Origin: Candidatus Eiseniibacteriota bacterium
GTDB taxonomy: Bacteria; Eisenbacteria; RBG-16-71-46
Direction: 5' to 3'
Length of the DNA stretch: 64,000 bases
Assembly: GCA_963717935.1 (NCBI GenBank)
Contig: CAVQXP010000002.1
Span: 384,001-448,000, forward strand
The number at the start of each line of letters is the position of its first letter. The stretch's first letter is position 1. The translations under genes were made by a program, and so were the position numbers. Of this stretch, positions 3,816-31,707 are shown piece after piece. The notes beneath the pieces were generated by a model. That model saw only the letters and a list, made by a program, of their open reading frames with translations, searched no databases and was not told where the DNA came from.

Positions 3816-4006
3816 TCAGGGCTCCCGGAACGGGCCGAAGCGATCGTGGAGGAGAGTGACCCGGCATTCTACCAGCCACCTCCGGCGCGCTCAACCAGCC
3901 GGTCCCGCCCCGGGCGGGTGCGGGAAACCGCGCATCCTCCGTTGCCTGCGTGGGCGGCGTGTGCTACCTCTCAGCCTGCATCGTTGATTCCGCCCGTGGA
4001 GGGCCG

Positions 4007-5122
4007 ATGAGCACGCGCAGCGAAGCCCCCGCCCGTCCGGCCGATTCGGAGCCCGCGCCGCGCCCGATCCCGTGGCCCACGCAGGTGCTGGACGCGCTGG
4101 AACAGGGGGTGGTGGCACTCGACCGTGAGCGCCGTGTCACCTACAACAACCGCCGCATCGAGGAGCTGTTCGCCATCGAGCCGGGCGGGCTGCTGGGGCT
4201 GCCGGCGTCGCGCCTGTTCCCCGGGGCCGACGCGCGCTGGCTGAAGGGCTCCTCGCGCGAGCCGCGCGAGTTCCGCATCGAAGCCGAGGGCCGCGAGTTG
4301 ACGCTCAAGGCCGAGTCCCTGCCGTTGCGCGACGAGGATGGCGCCCTGATGGGCTCGCTCGTGATGGTGGAGGCCACCTCCGAGAGCGAGGACGGCGAGT
4401 TCCAGAAGAACATCGACCGTCTGGTCTCGCTGGGCGAGTTGTCGGCCTACGTGGCCCACGAGATCCGCAACCCGCTGACAGGCATCCGCACCACCGTCCA
4501 GTACGTGGGCTCGAAGTTCAAGCCCAACGACGCCCGGCGCGAGGATCTCGAGGACGTCATCAAGGAGCTGGACCGCATCGAGCAGATCATCACCGGCCTG
4601 CTCATGTTCGCCCGGCCGCCCGCGGCCCGCCCGCAGTCGTGCGACCTGCGCCAGGTGCTCGAGAAGACGCTGGACCTGCTCGAGCTGCAGCTGGGGGACG
4701 CGCAGGTGACGCTCTCCAAGGATTACGCCGAGGTGACCGAGGAGATCCCGCTCGTCTACGCGGACCCCGACCTCACGCAGCAGGTGTTCCTCAACCTCTG
4801 CCTGAACGCCGTGCAGGCCATGCCCGAAGGGGGCGAGCTGCACGTCATGCTGGGGGTGCGGCGCTACCGCACGCGGCGCTCGGTGGTGGACGTCTCCTTC
4901 CGGGACACCGGCGTGGGCATCCCCAAGGATCTCATGGAGAAGATCTTCGACCCCTTCTTCACGACGCGTTCCATGGGCACCGGGCTGGGCCTGCCCATCT
5001 CGCTGCAGATCGTGCGCGAGGTGGGCGGCGTGATCACCGCCAAGAACAACGCGGGCGGTGGCGCGACGCTGCGCGTCTCCTTCCCGGTCCCGGCGGAGCC
5101 GCCGGGACCGCCGGAGGACTAG
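4007..5122 (+). CDS. Cytoplasmic PAS-domain sensor histidine kinase (NtrB/AtoS-like)
   Basis: PAS (LDALEQGVVALD..TYNN), H-box AHEIRNPLT, N-box QVFLNLCLNA, DTGVG, FDPFFTT, GTGLGL; no TM segment. Confidence 0.92.
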   Translation: MSTRSEAPARPADSEPAPRPIPWPTQVLDALEQGVVALDRERRVTYNNRRIEELFAIEPGGLLGLPASRLFPGADARWLKGSSREPREFRIEAEGRELTLKAESLPLRDEDGALMGSLVMVEATSESEDGEFQKNIDRLVSLGELSAYVAHEIRNPLTGIRTTVQYVGSKFKPNDARREDLEDVIKELDRIEQIITGLLMFARPPAARPQSCDLRQVLEKTLDLLELQLGDAQVTLSKDYAEVTEEIPLVYADPDLTQQVFLNLCLNAVQAMPEGGELHVMLGVRRYRTRRSVVDVSFRDTGVGIPKDLMEKIFDPFFTTRSMGTGLGLPISLQIVREVGGVITAKNNAGGGATLRVSFPVPAEPPGPPED

Positions 5123-5126
5123 GACC

Positions 5127-6501
5127 GTGAAGAACACCGTGCTCGTCGTGGACGACGAGACTCCTCATCCGCAAGTCGCTGTCCCGCGTGCTGCGCGAGA
5201 AGGGCTACCTGGTCGAGGGGGCGAGCACCGGGGCGGAGGGTCTCGAGAAGGTCGAAAGCGTGCGGCCGCAGGTCATCATCCTCGACATGCGCCTGCCGGA
5301 CACCGACGGCCTCTCCGTGCTGCGGCGCGTACGCCAGTTGGATGCGCTGGTCCAGGTCATCGTCATCACCGCCTACGGCGACGTCCAGTCGGCGGTCGAG
5401 GCCATGAAGCTCGGAGCCTGCGATTTCCTCCGGAAGCCGTACGAGAAGGAGGACATCGAGATGGCGGTCGAGGCTGCGGCCCGCACGTTCCGCCAGGCCA
5501 ACGAACTCGACCTCTACCGCCGCAAGGAGAAGCGCCGGTACACGGGGGAGGAGATCATCGGCACCTCCGTCCCCATGCAGGAGGTGCGGGATCTCATCGA
5601 GAAGGTGGTGCGCAGCCAGGCGACCTCCGTGTTCATCACCGGGGAGAGCGGGACCGGCAAGGAACTGGTCGCGCGGGCGATCCACTACCGCAGCGATCGT
5701 GCCCAGGCGCCGCTCATGGAGGTCAACTGCTCCTCGTTCCAGGAGACCCTGCTCGAGAACGAGCTGTTCGGGCACGAGCGCGGCGCCTTCACGGACGCCG
5801 GGGACCTGAAGAAGGGCCTGGTCGAGCTTTGCGACGGCGGCACGCTCTTCCTGGACGAGGTGGCGGACATGTCGATGCCGACCCAGGCCAAGCTCCTGCG
5901 CTTCATCGACTACCGGAACTTCAAGCGGGTGGGCGGGGCCGAGGACATCAGCGTGGACATCCGCATCGTGGCCGCCTCGAACAAGGATCTCGAGAGCGAC
6001 ATCCGCACCGGGCGCTTCCGCAGCGACCTGTACTTCCGCCTCAAGGTCGTGAGCATCCACCTGCCTCCGCTCAACGAGCGCGGTGACGACATCCTGCTGC
6101 TGGCGCGGCACTTCCTGCGCGAGTTCTCCCGCCAGTTCCAGAAGGACTTCCGCGACATCACGCCCGACGCGGCGCGCCTGCTGCTGTCCTACCGCTGGCC
6201 GGGCAACGTTCGCGAGCTGCGCAACCTCATCGAGCGCGTCGTGCTCCTCGAGGATGGGCGGCAACTGGAACTCGATCACCTGCCGGCGGAGGTCGCGGGC
6301 CGGCGCCTGGCCTCCGACCACTCGATCGCGCTGCCCACGCTCGCGCAGATCGAAGCCGACCACATCGCCGAGGTGCTGCGGCTCACCGCGGGGAACAAGA
6401 GCCGCGCCGCGCGCGTCCTCGGCATCTCGCGGCAGGGTCTCATCGAGAAGCTGCGGCGCTCGCGCGTGCTCGACGAGGGTGGTGGTCGTCAAGTATCTTG
6501 A
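5127..6501 (+). CDS. Sigma54-dependent response regulator (REC-AAA+-HTH), apparent +1 frameshift near 5160
   Basis: VLVVDDE, LDMRLP, GESGTGKE, ELFGHERGAFTDA, LFLDE, WPGNVREL, HTH NKSRAARVLGISR. Confidence 0.92.
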
Positions 6502-6547
6502 CACCCACAAGGAAGTGGACACCGTCCTGCAATCTATTGTATTGCAG
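6488..6547. promoter_or_regulatory. Two inverted repeats, candidate activator-binding (UAS) sites
   Basis: GTCAAG-TAT-CTTGAC (6488-6502) and CTGCAAT-N7-ATTGCAG (6527-6547) in an AT-rich intergenic stretch about 170-230 bp upstream of a sigma54 motif. Confidence 0.45.
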
Positions 6548-6713
6548 TTGTTTGCGATTCACGTTCCGGCTAACTCACCATTAAATTGACGGTTAGAACG
6601 GTTCGAGCCAGTCGAAAACGGCAAGGTGCGAGCCTGGGTAGAACCCACGGCTATTTTTTATTGCCTTGTACTGCAATGTCTTACGCGATGAATGACGCTG
6701 CCTCCCTGCCGTG

Positions 6714-6729
6714 TGGAATGGAACCTGCT
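6714..6729 (+). promoter_or_regulatory. Putative sigma54 (-24/-12) promoter
   Basis: TGGAATGGAACCTGCT: GG 6715-16, 10-nt spacer, GC 6727-28; downstream of a bEBP gene, with AT-rich DNA upstream. Confidence 0.6.
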
Positions 6730-6870
6730 TCCGAGTTCGGGCGAGGCCAAGTGGGGTTCTCGGGAACTCCGCCGGGCCGCCGGGGCCGCGCCCAAGGCGG
6801 CGGCCAACAGTGCCCCAGCGAGAAGTTGGGGACTCCACCATCGAGATCAGATCCAAGGAGGTGATCAGGA

Positions 6871-6939
6871 ATGGCAGCGAAGAAGAAGGTCGCCAAGAAG
6901 AAGGTCGCCAAGAAGAAGGTCGCCAAGAAGAAGAAGTAA
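6871..6939 (+). CDS. 22-aa lysine-rich histone-like micropeptide MAAKKKVAKKKVAKKKVAKKKK
   Basis: ATG 6871 to TAA 6937-39; 12-nt perfect anti-SD complement AAGGAGGTGATC at 6855-6866; all Lys codons AAG; 15-bp tandem repeat; hairpin downstream. Confidence 0.8.
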   Translation: MAAKKKVAKKKVAKKKVAKKKK

Positions 6940-6967
6940 GCCCGTCTCAGGACCTGGCACGTCCTCA

Positions 6968-6998
6968 GGGGATTGGTCGGCGATGCCGGCCAATCCCC
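6968..6998 (+). terminator. Hairpin after micropeptide gene
   Basis: GGGGATTGGTCGGC-GAT-GCCGGCCAATCCCC, 14-bp stem with one G-U pair; no clear U-tract. Confidence 0.45.
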
Positions 6999-7394
6999 GA
7001 TTGCTGGGGGAGCGGCTCTCGACCCGGCGGGGAGGTCCAGGGGAGAGGATGCGCGCCGGCTGCCACGCCCGTTCGCGGGAGCGACCCTCGCTCCGCCTGG
7101 AGTGGAAGCCGATCGACCGGCGGGTCGGCCTTACCTGAGGCCACCGGTCGCGCGAGAGAGAACGCACCGCGGGACGGTGACCTGACGGTGCGGGTTTGGG
7201 GCTGGAGGTTTCCGTGCTAGGGCTGGCCGTCTTCCTCCAGTGACCCGCGACGGTTCGCTCATGGATGGGCGGGCCGTTCGCGTCTTCTGAGGATCCCCCG
7301 CAGCGTTCCCTGCAGCGAGCCTTGCCGCCGGTGGCGCGTGCTATAGTCGTGCAGCTCGCCACCGCCGCGTGCTCTTCGCCTGCCCGAGGCCCCG

Positions 7395-10184
<2,790 letters not shown>

Positions 10185-10218
10185 ACGCCGCCCATCCCGG
10201 GCGCAGACTCCCGCCGCC

Positions 10219-11680
10219 ATGGACGCCATCTCCGCCGCCGGGCTCGAGCGGCTCGACGACTTCCGCTGGATGATCCCGCGCGCGGGCGCGATGCGCGTGC
10301 CCGGGGTCATCTTCGCGGACCGGCCGCTGCTCGAGCAGATCCTCGGCCGACCGCACCTGCGAGCAGATCCGCAATGCCGCGACCCTGCCGGGCATCCTCG
10401 AGGCCTCGATCGCCATGCCCGACGCCCACTGGGGCTACGGGCTGCCGGTCGGCGGCGTGGTGGCCTTCGATCCCGGACGAGGGCGTGGTCTCGCCGGGCG
10501 CGGTGGGCTACGACATCGGCTGCGGCGTGCGCCTGATGCGCACCCGCCTCGACGCGCGCCGACCTGGCCCCGCAGGTGGAGGCCCTGGCCGACGCGCTCT
10601 ACCGCGAGGTGCCCGTGCGGCGTGGGCTCCACCGGGCGCGGTGCGGCTCAAGCCCGGGCGATCTGGACCGGGTGCTGCGCGACGGGCCGCGCTGGGCGGT
10701 CGGGCGCGGCCTGGGCACCGCGGGCGACCTCGAGCACTGCGAGGAGGCCGGCGTGCTGGCCGACGCCGACCCGGGCGCGGTGAGCGAGGCCGCGAAGGAC
10801 CGCGGCCGCGACCAGCTCGGCACGCTGGGCTCGGGCAACCACTTCCTCGAGGTGCAGGAGGTGGACGAGATCCACGACGAGGACGGCGGCGCGGGCGCTC
10901 GGGCTCGAGCGGGGCATGGTCACCGTGATGATCCACTGCGGCTCGCGCGGGCTGGGCCACCAGGTCTGCACCGACCACGTGCGCGACGTCGCGCGCAAGC
11001 TCACCGGCTGGGGCATCGACGCTGCCGGACCGGCAGCTCGCCTGCGCCCCGCTGCGCTCGCCCGAGGCCACGGCCTACCTGGGCGCGATGCGCGCGGCCG
11101 CGAACTTCGCCTGGGCGAACCGGCAGTGCATCGCCGACGAGGTGCGGCGCGCCTTCGAGCGCACGCTGCGCCGCAGCCACGAGTCGCTTGGACCTCACGC
11201 TGGTCTACGACGTGGCGCACAACATCGCCAAGTTCGAGCGCCACCGGACCGCGGCGGGCACGGTGCGCTGCCTGGTGCACCGCAAGGGCGCGACGCGGGC
11301 CTTCCCGGCGGGCCACCCCGACGTGCCCGCGGCCTACCGTGCGGTGGGCCAGCCGGTGCTGGTGCCCGGGCGACATGGGGCGCTACTCGTTCGTGCTGGT
11401 CGGGCGTCCGGGCTCGATGGCGCACGCCTTCGGCTCCACCTGCCACGGCGCCGGACGCCGCATGAGCCGCACCCAGGCGGTGCGCGAGACGCGCGGCCGC
11501 GACCTGGTCGCCGAGCTGCGCGAGGCCGGCGTCGCCGTGCGCTCCAAGGGCCGCGACACGCTGCGCGAGGAGACCAGCGAGGCCTACAAGGACGTGGCCG
11601 ACGTCGTGCGCGTGGTCGAGGGCGCGGACCTGGCGAGGCGCGTGGCGCGGCTCAGGCCGTTCCTGGTGGTCAAGGGCTGA
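10219..11680 (+). CDS. rtcB: RtcB RNA ligase (several apparent frameshifts)
   Basis: [63 protein letters not shown]. Confidence 0.92.
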
Positions 11681-30273: not shown

Positions 30274-31707
30274 ATGGAAATGAAACCTTCGCTGAACCTG
30301 AGCCTGCGGCCGGCCCTCATCATGACGCCGCGCCTGCAGCAGGCGCTCAAGCTGCTGCAGGTGCCGACGCTCGAGCTTCAGCAGATCCTCAAGCAGGAGA
30401 TGATCCAGAACCCGCTGCTCGAGGAGGTGGACGAGGTCACGGAGAGCGAGGACCTCGCCAAGGAGGACTCTCCCGAGGAGAAGGCCAACGAAGAGGCGGA
30501 GGACCCGACCGAGGAAGATCCCATCGACTGGTCGGATTACATGCAGGACGGGGCGCTCGACCGGGTCTACGTGCCCCAGCAGGAGACCTCGGTGGAGTTC
30601 CTCGAGAAGGTGCCGGTCACGCGCACCTCGCTGGCCGAGAGCCTGCTCGAGCAGCTCCACTTCCTGGCGCTCTCGCCGCGCGACCTGATGCTCGCGGAGT
30701 TCCTGGTCGGCTCGCTGGACGAGCGCGGCTGGCTGGCGACCCCGCTCGATGAGGTGGCGCAGTCCACGGGCCAGCCGCTCGAGCTCTGCGAGCGGATCCT
30801 GAAGGTCATCCAGGCGCTCGAGCCGGTCGGGGTGGGAGCGCGCGACCTGCGGGAGTGCCTGCTCATCCAGCTCGAGGCGCGCAACGAGCGCGATACGCTG
30901 CCGTGGAAGCTCATCCACGACCAGTTCGACAACCTGGTGAACCGGCGCTTCCCCGAGATCGCGCGCCAGCTCAAGTGCACGTCCGAGGAGGTGCAGGCGG
31001 GGGCCGACGCCATCGCCACGCTGAACCCCAAGCCGGGGCTCCAGGTCTCGAGCGAGGATCCCAGGTACGTGGTGCCCGACCTGGTCGTCGAGCGCGTGAA
31101 CGACGAGTACCTCGTCATGCTCAACGACCGGCACCTGCCCCGGTTGCGCATCTCCGCGGCCTACGAAGGCGTGATGCGCGGCAAGAAGAAGTCGGAGTGC
31201 ACCGTCGGCGAGGTCAAGACCCGCGAGTACATCCAGGGCAAGCTGAACTCGGCGCGCTGGCTCATCCAGACCATCGAGCAGCGGCGCCGCACCATGATCA
31301 AGGTGATGAACTGCATCATCCGCGAGCAGCGGGAGTTCTTCGACAAGGGGATCGCGTTCCTGCGGCCGCTCACGCTCCAGCAGGTCGCCCGGCAGATCGA
31401 CATGCACGAGTCCACGGTGAGCCGCGTCTGCAGCGCGAAGTACGTGCAGACGCCGCGCGGCGTGTTCGAGCTCAAGTTCTTCTTCTCGAGCGGGCTCGAG
31501 ACCGAGGACGGCGAGGACGTGTCGGCCCGGACGGCCCGTGACATCATCAAGACCCTCATCGACGAGGAGGTCAAGACCGAGCCGCTGTCCGACCAGCGCA
31601 TCGCCGAGCTCCTGCACGAGACGGGGCTCAAGATCGCCCGGCGGACGGTGGCCAAGTACCGGGAACAGCTCAGCATCCTGCCGGCGCGGTTCCGCCGGCG
31701 CGTGTGA
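30274..31707 (+). CDS. rpoN: RNA polymerase sigma-54 factor
   Basis: MTPRLQQALKLLQ, NPLLE, GARDLRECLLIQ, HESTVSR, RpoN box ARRTVAKYRE. Confidence 0.97.
   Translation: MEMKPSLNLSLRPALIMTPRLQQALKLLQVPTLELQQILKQEMIQNPLLEEVDEVTESEDLAKEDSPEEKANEEAEDPTEEDPIDWSDYMQDGALDRVYVPQQETSVEFLEKVPVTRTSLAESLLEQLHFLALSPRDLMLAEFLVGSLDERGWLATPLDEVAQSTGQPLELCERILKVIQALEPVGVGARDLRECLLIQLEARNERDTLPWKLIHDQFDNLVNRRFPEIARQLKCTSEEVQAGADAIATLNPKPGLQVSSEDPRYVVPDLVVERVNDEYLVMLNDRHLPRLRISAAYEGVMRGKKKSECTVGEVKTREYIQGKLNSARWLIQTIEQRRRTMIKVMNCIIREQREFFDKGIAFLRPLTLQQVARQIDMHESTVSRVCSAKYVQTPRGVFELKFFFSSGLETEDGEDVSARTARDIIKTLIDEEVKTEPLSDQRIAELLHETGLKIARRTVAKYREQLSILPARFRRRV

Follow-up and report, generated by a model that had tools for sequence, protein, structure and literature searches.

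The 64-kb stretch of DNA analysed here (the window) belongs to the 3.02-Mb, 71% G+C genome of an uncultured Candidatus Eisenbacteria organism, presumably from soil or sediment, and contains a micro-open reading frame (micro-ORF) of 22 codons, 13 of them for lysine, whose product is MAAKKKVAKKKVAKKKVAKKKK. Comparison with related genomes indicates that the micro-ORF is a genuine conserved gene, beyond chance, and that it is unannotated and very probably translated. It lies downstream of genes for a sensor histidine kinase and an NtrC-type activator, behind a sigma-54 promoter, and is followed by two 3′ hairpins (Table 1). As far as sequence goes, the gene anatomy, its conservation, the selection on charge, the promoter and terminator motifs, the synteny and the positional orthology are established by the comparisons below. 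The explanation that best accounts for the whole, to which we give slightly better than even chances, is that the product is a translated, miniaturised H1/Hc2-like polycation that would bind nucleic acid as the dedicated output of the kinase/activator/sigma-54 circuit.

The micro-ORF and its conservation

The first-pass annotation of the window had read a 22-amino-acid (aa) peptide of VAKKK repeats with AAG as its only Lys codon, and the sequence and the ORF list agree with this gene model. The codons are ATG GCA GCG (AAG AAG AAG GTC GCC)x3 AAG AAG AAG AAG TAA and include a perfect 15-nucleotide (nt) tandem array at 6880-6933 (3.6 copies, 100% matches, Tandem Repeats Finder). The peptide is composed of K, A, V and M only, with a computed mass of 2468 Da, pI of 11.1 and net charge of about +12.5. 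The exclusive use of AAG is expected for a single gene, since AAA makes up just 3.8% of the Lys codons in this 71% G+C genome. A perfect Shine-Dalgarno (SD) sequence had also been claimed. Because the host's own 16S gene ends in ...GGATCACCTCCTTTCT, the 12-mer AAGGAGGTGATC, separated from the ATG by 4 bases, is indeed an exact complement of the anti-SD. Elsewhere in the genome AAGGAGGTGATC occurs only as antisense at the rRNA gene itself, and in a shuffle test of the window two matches to it with at most one mismatch were reached in 0/100 shuffles.

Four K-rich ORFs of 12-60 aa were listed in the genome, and K blocks behind an SD were found in the micro-ORF alone. Three larger ORFs overlap the gene, at 6692-7138 (+), 6711-7220 (+) and 6865-7362 (-); they were taken as spurious high-GC frames because they have no Pfam match and their protein matches occur just where the DNA is conserved in close relatives. 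Outside the window, at G000:C4:2078787-2078882, a 31-aa Arg/Lys-rich ORF (MGSGKKRKRKK...) stands behind GGAGGA, and we take it to resemble the small ribosomal protein bS22 family.

When one genome per species was scanned with a pattern, 85 stretches were returned, all but 3 of which are labelled Candidatus Eisenbacteria metagenome-assembled genomes. The DNA search with positions 6500-7100 matched 39 of 41 relatives, and the part common to the matches, 6853-7006, comprises the SD, the ORF and the two 3′ hairpins. The micro-ORF was present in 14/15 and 17/20 loci of two sets fetched by similarity; the misses were one locus cut at a contig end, two without the micro-ORF and one whose match turned out to be the tail of a 252-aa protein. 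Pooling of the loci that carry the 3′ 15-mer described below gave 114 loci, 89 of them distinct, and these 89 served as the order-level set for the counts over 89 loci. The unpublished genome G026 was included solely in the tallies of the relatives' DNA search, the 15-mer copies, Hfq and the SD plus K-block pattern.

The SD, start, frame and stop were retained in 89/89 distinct loci, and in all of them the K-rich ORF ends 6-16 nt before the 15-mer. The SD reads GGAGGTGA in 82 loci and GGGGGTGA in 7, with GGAGG placed 8-11 nt from the start. The peptides are 17-27 aa long (median 22) with K+R of 54-64%; MAAKKKAAKKKGTKKKAAKKKK (19 loci) and MAAKKKAAKKKATKKKAAKKKK (16 loci) are the most frequent, and the form of the window was found in 4 loci of its own genus. 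A search for the SD and ORF downstream of orthologous kinase/regulator pairs had been proposed as a check on the gene, and this arrangement was found in 89/89 loci of the order and 15/17 loci of other families.

Length changes between loci are whole codons, and within the host's genus one 15-nt unit is gained or lost (17 vs 22 aa). The 63 unique coding sequences start with ATG (61) or GTG (2) and stop with TAA (46) or TAG (17). The summed entropies at codon positions 1, 2 and 3 of the 22-aa class are 3.4, 6.8 and 10.3, respectively. The peptides of the 89 loci are built from K, A, G, T, V, S, P, R and M, with no D or E in any. The 513 spacer codons specify A (360), T (57), G (53), V (18), S (9), P (7), R (6) and M (3); D and E are missing although GAN codons are one mutation from GCN, GGN and GTN. 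Lys is occasionally replaced by Arg through CGC, AGG or AGA codons, by which the charge is kept and the AAG word is lost. Within the limits of a sequence comparison, these loci demonstrate that selection acts on the charge of the peptide.

Two features of codon usage were recorded beside this. AAG makes up 817/817 Lys codons in the relatives' 63 coding sequences, which are related to one another and in many of which the search pattern fixed the last three Lys codons. The Ala codon GCT has a share of 24% in the micro-ORFs as compared with 4.3% genome-wide; the codon bias of highly expressed genes was rejected as the cause, as ribosomal protein genes use GCT at 5.5%.

Longer orthologues and the resemblance to H1/Hc2 proteins

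The pattern of SD end, ATG and first K block was found in 140/206 genomes of the phylum, whereas the reversed control matched about 10. By family, the pattern was present in 81/88 genomes of f1 (the host's own family), 3/3 of f2, 3/10 of f3, 30/41 of f18, 7/8 of f15 and fewer of the others. From eight further families, 17 of the 18 loci fetched contained a K-rich ORF of 16-112 aa. Its length is 16 aa in f18 (7 loci, e.g. MPAKKKAAKKKAAKKK), 17 aa in f17, 25 aa in f14, 62-112 aa in f15, 92-96 aa in f10, 95 aa in f7 and 90 aa in f9. Searches with tblastn placed the kinase, the activator and a receiver-only gene upstream in 15/17 of these loci and uvrA downstream in 12/17. The strongest evidence that the micro-ORF is coding comes from this slot in other families, where the ORF can reach 112 codons. 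K and R together make up 48-65% of the residues in the 17 orthologues, D and E are absent, and the best-scoring repeat period is 5 in 15/17. The comparison of loci establishes the 22-aa peptide as a positional orthologue, and the short extreme, of K-rich proteins that have pentapeptide repeats and are about 100 aa long. The long orthologues (L147-L149, L156, L157) end in non-basic tails that are missing from the short forms, namely ...SNRM[IV]KM in f15 and ...LLPAIMPPA or ...VMPPSLPPL in f7 and f9.

The first-pass annotation had likened the repeats to histone-H1-like proteins such as chlamydial Hc2, a proposal that stood in part. In its favour, the orthologues of 62-112 aa share the period and give weak profile matches; judged by profile score and length, the K-rich family is not a member of the Hc2 family. 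The best match of the long orthologues to HC2 (PF07382) had an E value of 0.0049 and 17.4 bits (cut-off 40), the 95-aa orthologue of locus L156 matched the NCBIfam H1-like model NF038053 with an E value of 4.6e-4 and 20.5 bits (cut-off 80), and the best score against NF038052 was 9.6 bits (cut-off 135). In the ESM Atlas, one of the nearest clusters has HC2 on 15% of its members. A protein homology search with a 96-aa orthologue gave 10 weak matches, 9 of them with SWIB/MDM2 (PF02201), in which only compositionally similar tails are matched.

The micro-ORF was claimed to be a real gene that is missing from annotation, and this is borne out by the conserved SD and ORF and by its absence from every protein collection and family library searched. 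The short peptide variants matched no Pfam or NCBIfam family, and an exact look-up in a collection of 15 billion proteins found 0/8 short variants and 0/8 long orthologues. In the part of the literature on Eisenbacteria and on lysine-rich small and nucleoid proteins that was surveyed, no description of a stand-alone micropeptide of this kind was found.

A few bacterial lineages are known to have K-rich H1-like proteins, and K/A-rich tails are also carried by mycobacterial HupB and other HU-type proteins. Hc2 is described as a DNA-binding protein of 165-237 aa that varies by the number of lysine-rich pentamers (PMC2848022). Both Hc2 (HctB; PF07382, NF038052) and the K-rich family here have Lys-rich pentapeptide repeats that vary in number, lack acidic residues and appear to have their expression tied to a regulatory programme. 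They differ in phylum and in length (165-237 aa vs 22 aa here and 16-112 aa in the phylum); control here would be exerted via a sigma-54 two-component circuit, and DNA binding is a prediction here. The Burkholderia-type H1-like proteins (NF038053) are likewise K/A-rich low-complexity polycations, whereas the peptide stands alone, is far shorter and has no folded domain. Protamines are short extreme polycations that are Arg-rich and eukaryotic, and they have in common with the small acid-soluble spore proteins (SASPs), which are folded on DNA and not polycationic, a small, abundant and inducible coating of DNA. For both, the analogy to the peptide is functional only, with no sequence relation.

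Sigma-54 promoter, regulatory neighbours and 3′ elements

The first-pass annotation lacked the sigma-54 promoter, the invariant 3′ hairpin and the probable terminator type of the G+C-rich hairpin, of which it had recognised the 14 pairs. The pattern TGG[ACT][AT][CTG]-N6-[TC]GC[ATC] has exactly one match, 104-168 nt 5′ of the start codon, in 77/89 loci, and the consensus of the relatives is TGGCAC-N5-nTGCW. The 12 misses comprise one locus without upstream sequence, three one-letter variants (by eye) and eight with a receiver-only gene between promoter and micro-ORF; wherever an f2 or f3 locus extended far enough (7/7), the promoter was found 483-552 nt upstream, preceding the receiver gene. 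From base composition, a hand calculation puts the chance rate of the pattern at about 5e-4 per 260 nt. The -24/-12 spacing and the combination of rpoN with an enhancer-binding activator, two marks of a sigma-54 unit, were both found. The genome encodes rpoN (Sigma54_DBD at G000:C2:415225-415701, E 1.7e-62, equivalent to about 31225-31701 of the window) and about 16 sigma-54 activators of the NtrC class. The rpoN gene lies inside the window, about 24 kb downstream of the micro-ORF. With a sigma-54 promoter in this position, the gene would be an output that the neighbouring two-component system induces.

Table 1 Features of the micro-ORF locus in the window.
Feature	Position	Strand	Description
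Soluble PAS-HisKA-HATPase sensor histidine kinase	3950..5122	+	Pfam PAS_4, HisKA, HATPase_c
NtrC-type sigma-54 activator	5128..6501	+	Pfam Response_reg, Sigma54_activat (2.6e-64), AAA_lid_14, HTH_8
Conserved DNA boxes	6488..6521	.	Palindrome GTCAAG-N3-CTTGAC, then CACCCACAAGGAAGTGGACA; 14-locus family alignment
Second conserved box	6584..6595	.	AATTGACGGTTA; alignment; unique in genome
Sigma-54 (-24/-12) promoter	6714..6729	+	TGGAATGGAACCTGCT; GG and GC 10 nt apart
Structured 5′ leader	6741..6854	+	Several G+C-rich hairpins; conserved within family only (alignments)
Shine-Dalgarno sequence	6855..6866	+	AAGGAGGTGATC; 12-nt perfect complement of own 16S 3′ end
Micro-protein gene	6871..6939	+	22 aa, 13 Lys; product MAAKKKVAKKKVAKKKVAKKKK
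Invariant 15-mer	6950..6964	+	GGACCTGGCACGTCC; possible 4-bp stem with 7-nt loop; starts 6-16 nt past stop codon
G+C-rich hairpin, probable intrinsic-terminator type	6969..6999	+	14 bp (one G-U), 3-nt loop
uvrA	7347..10270	+	Conserved downstream neighbour; spread over several reading frames in host assembly

No hydrophobic segment was seen in the translation of the kinase, which is conserved 5′ of the K-rich ORF across the phylum. The activator combines a receiver, an AAA+ sigma-54 interaction domain and a Fis-type helix-turn-helix, and its orthologues are adjacent in all larger loci examined. The palindrome and the box that follows it stand at and just past the activator stop codon, and each occurs once in the whole genome. 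The second box sits between activator gene and promoter, where the sequence turns A+T-rich (GC down to 0.485). These boxes are candidate activator binding sites; if they act as such, the regulator would be dedicated to the micro-ORF promoter. Terminator-like hairpins with T-runs are also present between activator and promoter, at 6527-6547 (CTGCAATCTATTGTATTGCAG) and at 6635-6658 (TGGGTAGAACCCA then CGGCTATTTTTT), and the former is conserved just in the closest relatives. The transcript would start near 6741, and the fold of 6741-7003 has an energy of -119.6 kcal/mol (z = -4.24), a stability reached by 0/200 shuffles.

Family f1 stands apart from the other families examined: in all of those, the sigma-54 promoter and the K-rich ORF are separated by a receiver-only response-regulator gene (e.g. 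L128:9445-9915, with equivalents in L023-L034 and L142-L159), and in f1 a structured leader of about 130 nt takes its place. Speculatively, this receiver, which shares the operon in most families, may serve as a phosphate sink or partner. One of 68 receiver-only relatives, P0044 (186 aa), starts as a receiver-only regulator and ends in the micro-ORF peptide, and was considered as a 'Rosetta stone' fusion. It was rejected as an artefact because its middle looks like frame-shifted spacer read-through. P0044 is the sole route seen by which the peptide enters a protein collection.

The first of the two 3′ elements is the 15-mer GGACCTGGCACGTCC, with the hairpin sequence GGACCUGGCACGUCC, which is invariant in alignments built without reference to it. 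Exact copies of the 15-mer, nearly always one per genome, were found in 84/88 genomes of f1, 8/10 of f3 and 3/104 of other families, the last being chance level (a reversed control matched about 10/206 genomes). The element is present as a variant in f2, and its core GGCACGTCC is kept in f18 within a hairpin preserved by a U-G pair. It accompanies the very short ORFs, and the long K-rich orthologues are without it.

Several roles for the 15-mer were considered and rejected. RNAalifold paired GGAgGUG of the SD with CACgUCC of the 15-mer, which would sequester the SD; both sides are invariant, with no covariation, the pairing probability exceeded 0.2 in just 11/77 transcripts (partition-function folding), and the complementarity is at chance, with 2534/20000 shuffles and 2718/20000 random genomic 15-mers pairing as well. 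A mimic of an anticodon loop is contradicted by the f18 loop UGGGCAC, which breaks the pattern, and ARAGORN found nothing. A second sigma-54 promoter does not fit, as the -12 GC is not kept and the spacing to the next element varies. An Rfam scan of 5500-8500 gave sub-threshold matches only, to toga_FSE (23.4 vs 40 bits), sX6 (21.8 vs 40 bits) and gyrA RNA (19.1 vs 45 bits).

The second 3′ element is probably of the intrinsic-terminator type. In its stem, 6 of 15 predicted pairs are changed on both sides (compensatory), and the hairpin is present in 89/89 loci with a mean energy of -29.5 kcal/mol; of the 9 nt directly past the stem, four or more are T in 51/89. The U-tract of the host is weak (GAUUGCU), and the terminator scan of the window did not list 6969-6999.

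This layout, in which an activator gene adjoins a sigma-54 promoter and a short terminated transcript, is identical to that of several regulatory RNAs. LuxO/qrr, GlrK/GlrR-glmY and Myxococcus pxr are comparable systems of an activator with a sigma-54-dependent short transcript, and crcZ adjoins cbrB. In Pseudomonas, CbrB is described as a direct activator of the sigmaN-dependent crcZ (PMC6296734). The CbrA/CbrB-crcZ system resembles the present locus in its NtrC-type two-component activator, sigma-54 promoter and single very short terminated transcript, highly expressed there and presumably here; its product is a non-coding RNA, of a kind that acts via Hfq/Crc or base pairing, whereas here a conserved, well-initiated ORF is present and no Hfq was found.

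It is nonetheless conceivable, though quite improbable, that the transcript acts chiefly as a regulatory RNA in the manner of CrcZ, Qrr or GlmY, with the AAG blocks or the 3′ hairpin as the active part and the ORF incidental or secondary in a dual-function RNA. Hfq binds A-R-N triplets, which the AAG blocks fit. The 15-mer is conserved beyond the coding spacers, and GCT codons are kept beyond amino-acid need. Hfq (PF17209), however, was found in 0/56 genomes of the order with a completeness of 90% or more and was missing from the host's own genome, while control genomes matched; a CrcZ-type Hfq sponge was rejected on this ground, and it would also leave the coding signals unexplained. CsrA is present, but GGA motifs are about as frequent as composition predicts (hand count), which does not indicate a CsrA sponge. 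The regulatory-RNA explanation is further opposed by the retention of SD, start, frame and stop in 89/89 loci, by the Lys-to-Arg changes that break the AAG blocks and keep the charge, and by the orthologues of 62-112 codons that have no 15-mer.

Proposed function, rivals and downstream neighbourhood

In the explanation that we favour, a cytoplasmic PAS kinase would sense a signal and phosphorylate the NtrC-type activator, which would open the promoter at 6714-6729. Transcription would yield a short RNA (some 260 nt, approximately 6741-7003) that ends at the 6969-6999 hairpin, and its near-perfect SD would allow very efficient translation and presumably high expression. The peptide would then bind nucleic acid, most probably DNA, by non-specific electrostatics, and nucleoid compaction or shielding would be the outcome under the inducing signal. 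Non-specific binding is suggested by a charge of about +12, the lack of acidic or bulky residues and the repeat period of Hc2/H1-like tails. By analogy with these proteins, the peptide most likely binds nucleic acid and DNA is its likeliest target.

If true, the gene would be the first stand-alone version, of 16-27 residues, of a bacterial K-rich H1-like protein, and its dedicated two-component and sigma-54 switch would also be new for such a protein. The series of 16-112 aa in one conserved slot would form a natural titration of the minimal length of a nucleic-acid-coating polycation. A conserved gene class that gene callers missed entirely is added, the uncultured phylum gains a directly testable regulatory module, and a single-copy invariant 15-nt element is flagged. 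A bolder version, which we regard as possible but doubtful, is a signal-switched bacterial 'protamine', in which the sigma-54 circuit has a polylysine polycation as its only dedicated output and works as a reversible switch for dormancy or protection, and the 3′ hairpin is a new RNA element. The polycation would have been trimmed to 17-27 residues in one order and to 16 in another family. It would be made in bulk from a maximal SD and would either cover and condense the chromosome or bring ribosomes to a halt, and ORFs whose peptide is too short to exit the ribosomal tunnel would depend on the 3′ hairpin for their expression or control.

Several observations weigh against the nucleoid-binding polycation. 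The matches to Hc2/H1-like profiles lie far below the cut-offs and may reflect composition only, and the window peptide itself matches no Pfam or NCBIfam family at E values up to 10. The 15-mer is more conserved than the coding spacers, which points to an added function at the RNA or DNA level and makes a peptide-only model insufficient; similarly, the GCT excess suggests some constraint on the nucleotides or the RNA themselves. The RNA runs searched yielded contigs of relatives, each with at most 0.26 of the sampled words, the organism may differ, and expression is poorly measured by contig depth. A contig of 189 nt from run X17, over 6904-7094, had a depth of 109 as compared with 3.7-8.7 for five of the six neighbouring-gene contigs listed for the run and 18.6 for the sixth, all from relatives. 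In run X18, the contig over 6708-6909 had a depth of 9.6 as compared with 17.9-26.1 in longer contigs of neighbouring genes. These contigs do not show expression of the micro-ORF and do not establish its transcript ends or the habitat, and the ORF contig of X18 is no deeper than its neighbours. In addition, the activator begins (5128-5175) with GTG AAG AAC ACC GTG CTC GTC GTG GAC GAC GAG, followed by a one-base shift before the conserved LLIRKSL; the shift, near 5167 and directly after the VVDDE motif, is either an indel of the host assembly or a real break just past the acidic pocket of the receiver. If real, it may impair the circuit in the host strain.

The same polycation could instead act on RNA or the ribosome, as a stress-induced ribosome-associated or hibernation-type factor, an RNA chaperone or a condensate former, which we consider unlikely. 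The smallest ribosomal proteins are of the same size and charge class; bTHX, bS22 and bL37 are Lys/Arg-rich proteins of 20-35 aa that gene callers often miss. The mRNA has the strongest possible SD, the invariant 3′ hairpin hints at an interplay at the RNA level, and a relative carries a K/A-rich tail on ribosomal protein S16. The peptide differs from bTHX, bS22 and bL37 in its repeats, its variable length and its regulated non-ribosomal locus, and it matches no NCBIfam ribosomal-protein model. The gene is sigma-54 regulated and lies outside the ribosomal operon (the ribosomal cluster is on another contig), a range of 16-112 aa is unlike a protein fitted to a fixed ribosomal site, and the sole profile leads are to DNA-binding H1-like proteins. 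Long K/A-rich tails were seen elsewhere in the phylum, on ribosomal protein S16, a DksA/TraR zinc-finger protein and glyoxalase-fold proteins (L136, L139, L140, L141); the carrier of such a tail in L137 is presumably topoisomerase I-like.

The net charge of about +12.5 would also suit other polyanions or surfaces, such as polyphosphate, the membrane or envelope or extracellular matrix DNA, or an antimicrobial-like peptide, and the data fix no target. We rate this as very improbable: the peptide lacks both a signal peptide and a hydrophobic face, its period of 5 does not give an amphipathic pattern, and the conserved neighbourhood showed no genes for export or polyphosphate.

Downstream, uvrA is regarded as a conserved neighbour of the micro-ORF unit, with no claim of membership beyond synteny. 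The distance between the two ranges from about 130 to about 1000 nt, and in f18 uvrA follows about 110-140 nt past the ORF stop. A short ORF packed with one codon and followed by a hairpin is what a Lys-rich leader peptide would look like, in which stalling at the Lys codons controls read-through of the hairpin into uvrA or other genes. The closeness of uvrA, which is next in many families, fits such an attenuator, as does one RNA contig that extends about 90 nt beyond the terminator hairpin. However, uvrA belongs to no lysine pathway and its spacing is variable, no conserved alternative to the terminator fold was predicted, orthologues of 62-112 aa are far too long for a leader, and the ORF has its own sigma-54 promoter, often in common with the receiver gene. 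Attenuation is accordingly the least probable of the alternatives, with hardly any weight in our assessment.

The host copy of uvrA is read in at least 3-4 frames, whereas the orthologue in L128 is intact (955 aa, with UvrA_DNA-bind, UvrA_inter and ABC_tran). The same pattern was obtained against every relative, so the breaks belong to the host assembly. Outside the window, at G000:C4:502373-502872, another sigma-54 activator matches its Pfam model in three consecutive pieces in different frames. The frame breaks in the activator, uvrA and this other activator look like assembly indels. In three f18 loci (L143, L144, L158), a -10-like hexamer, TACAAT or TATGAT, stands directly before the uvrA start and about 10 nt past the terminator of the K-rich ORF (by eye); from this position, the uvrA promoter would have to overlap the 3′ elements of the K-rich ORF there.

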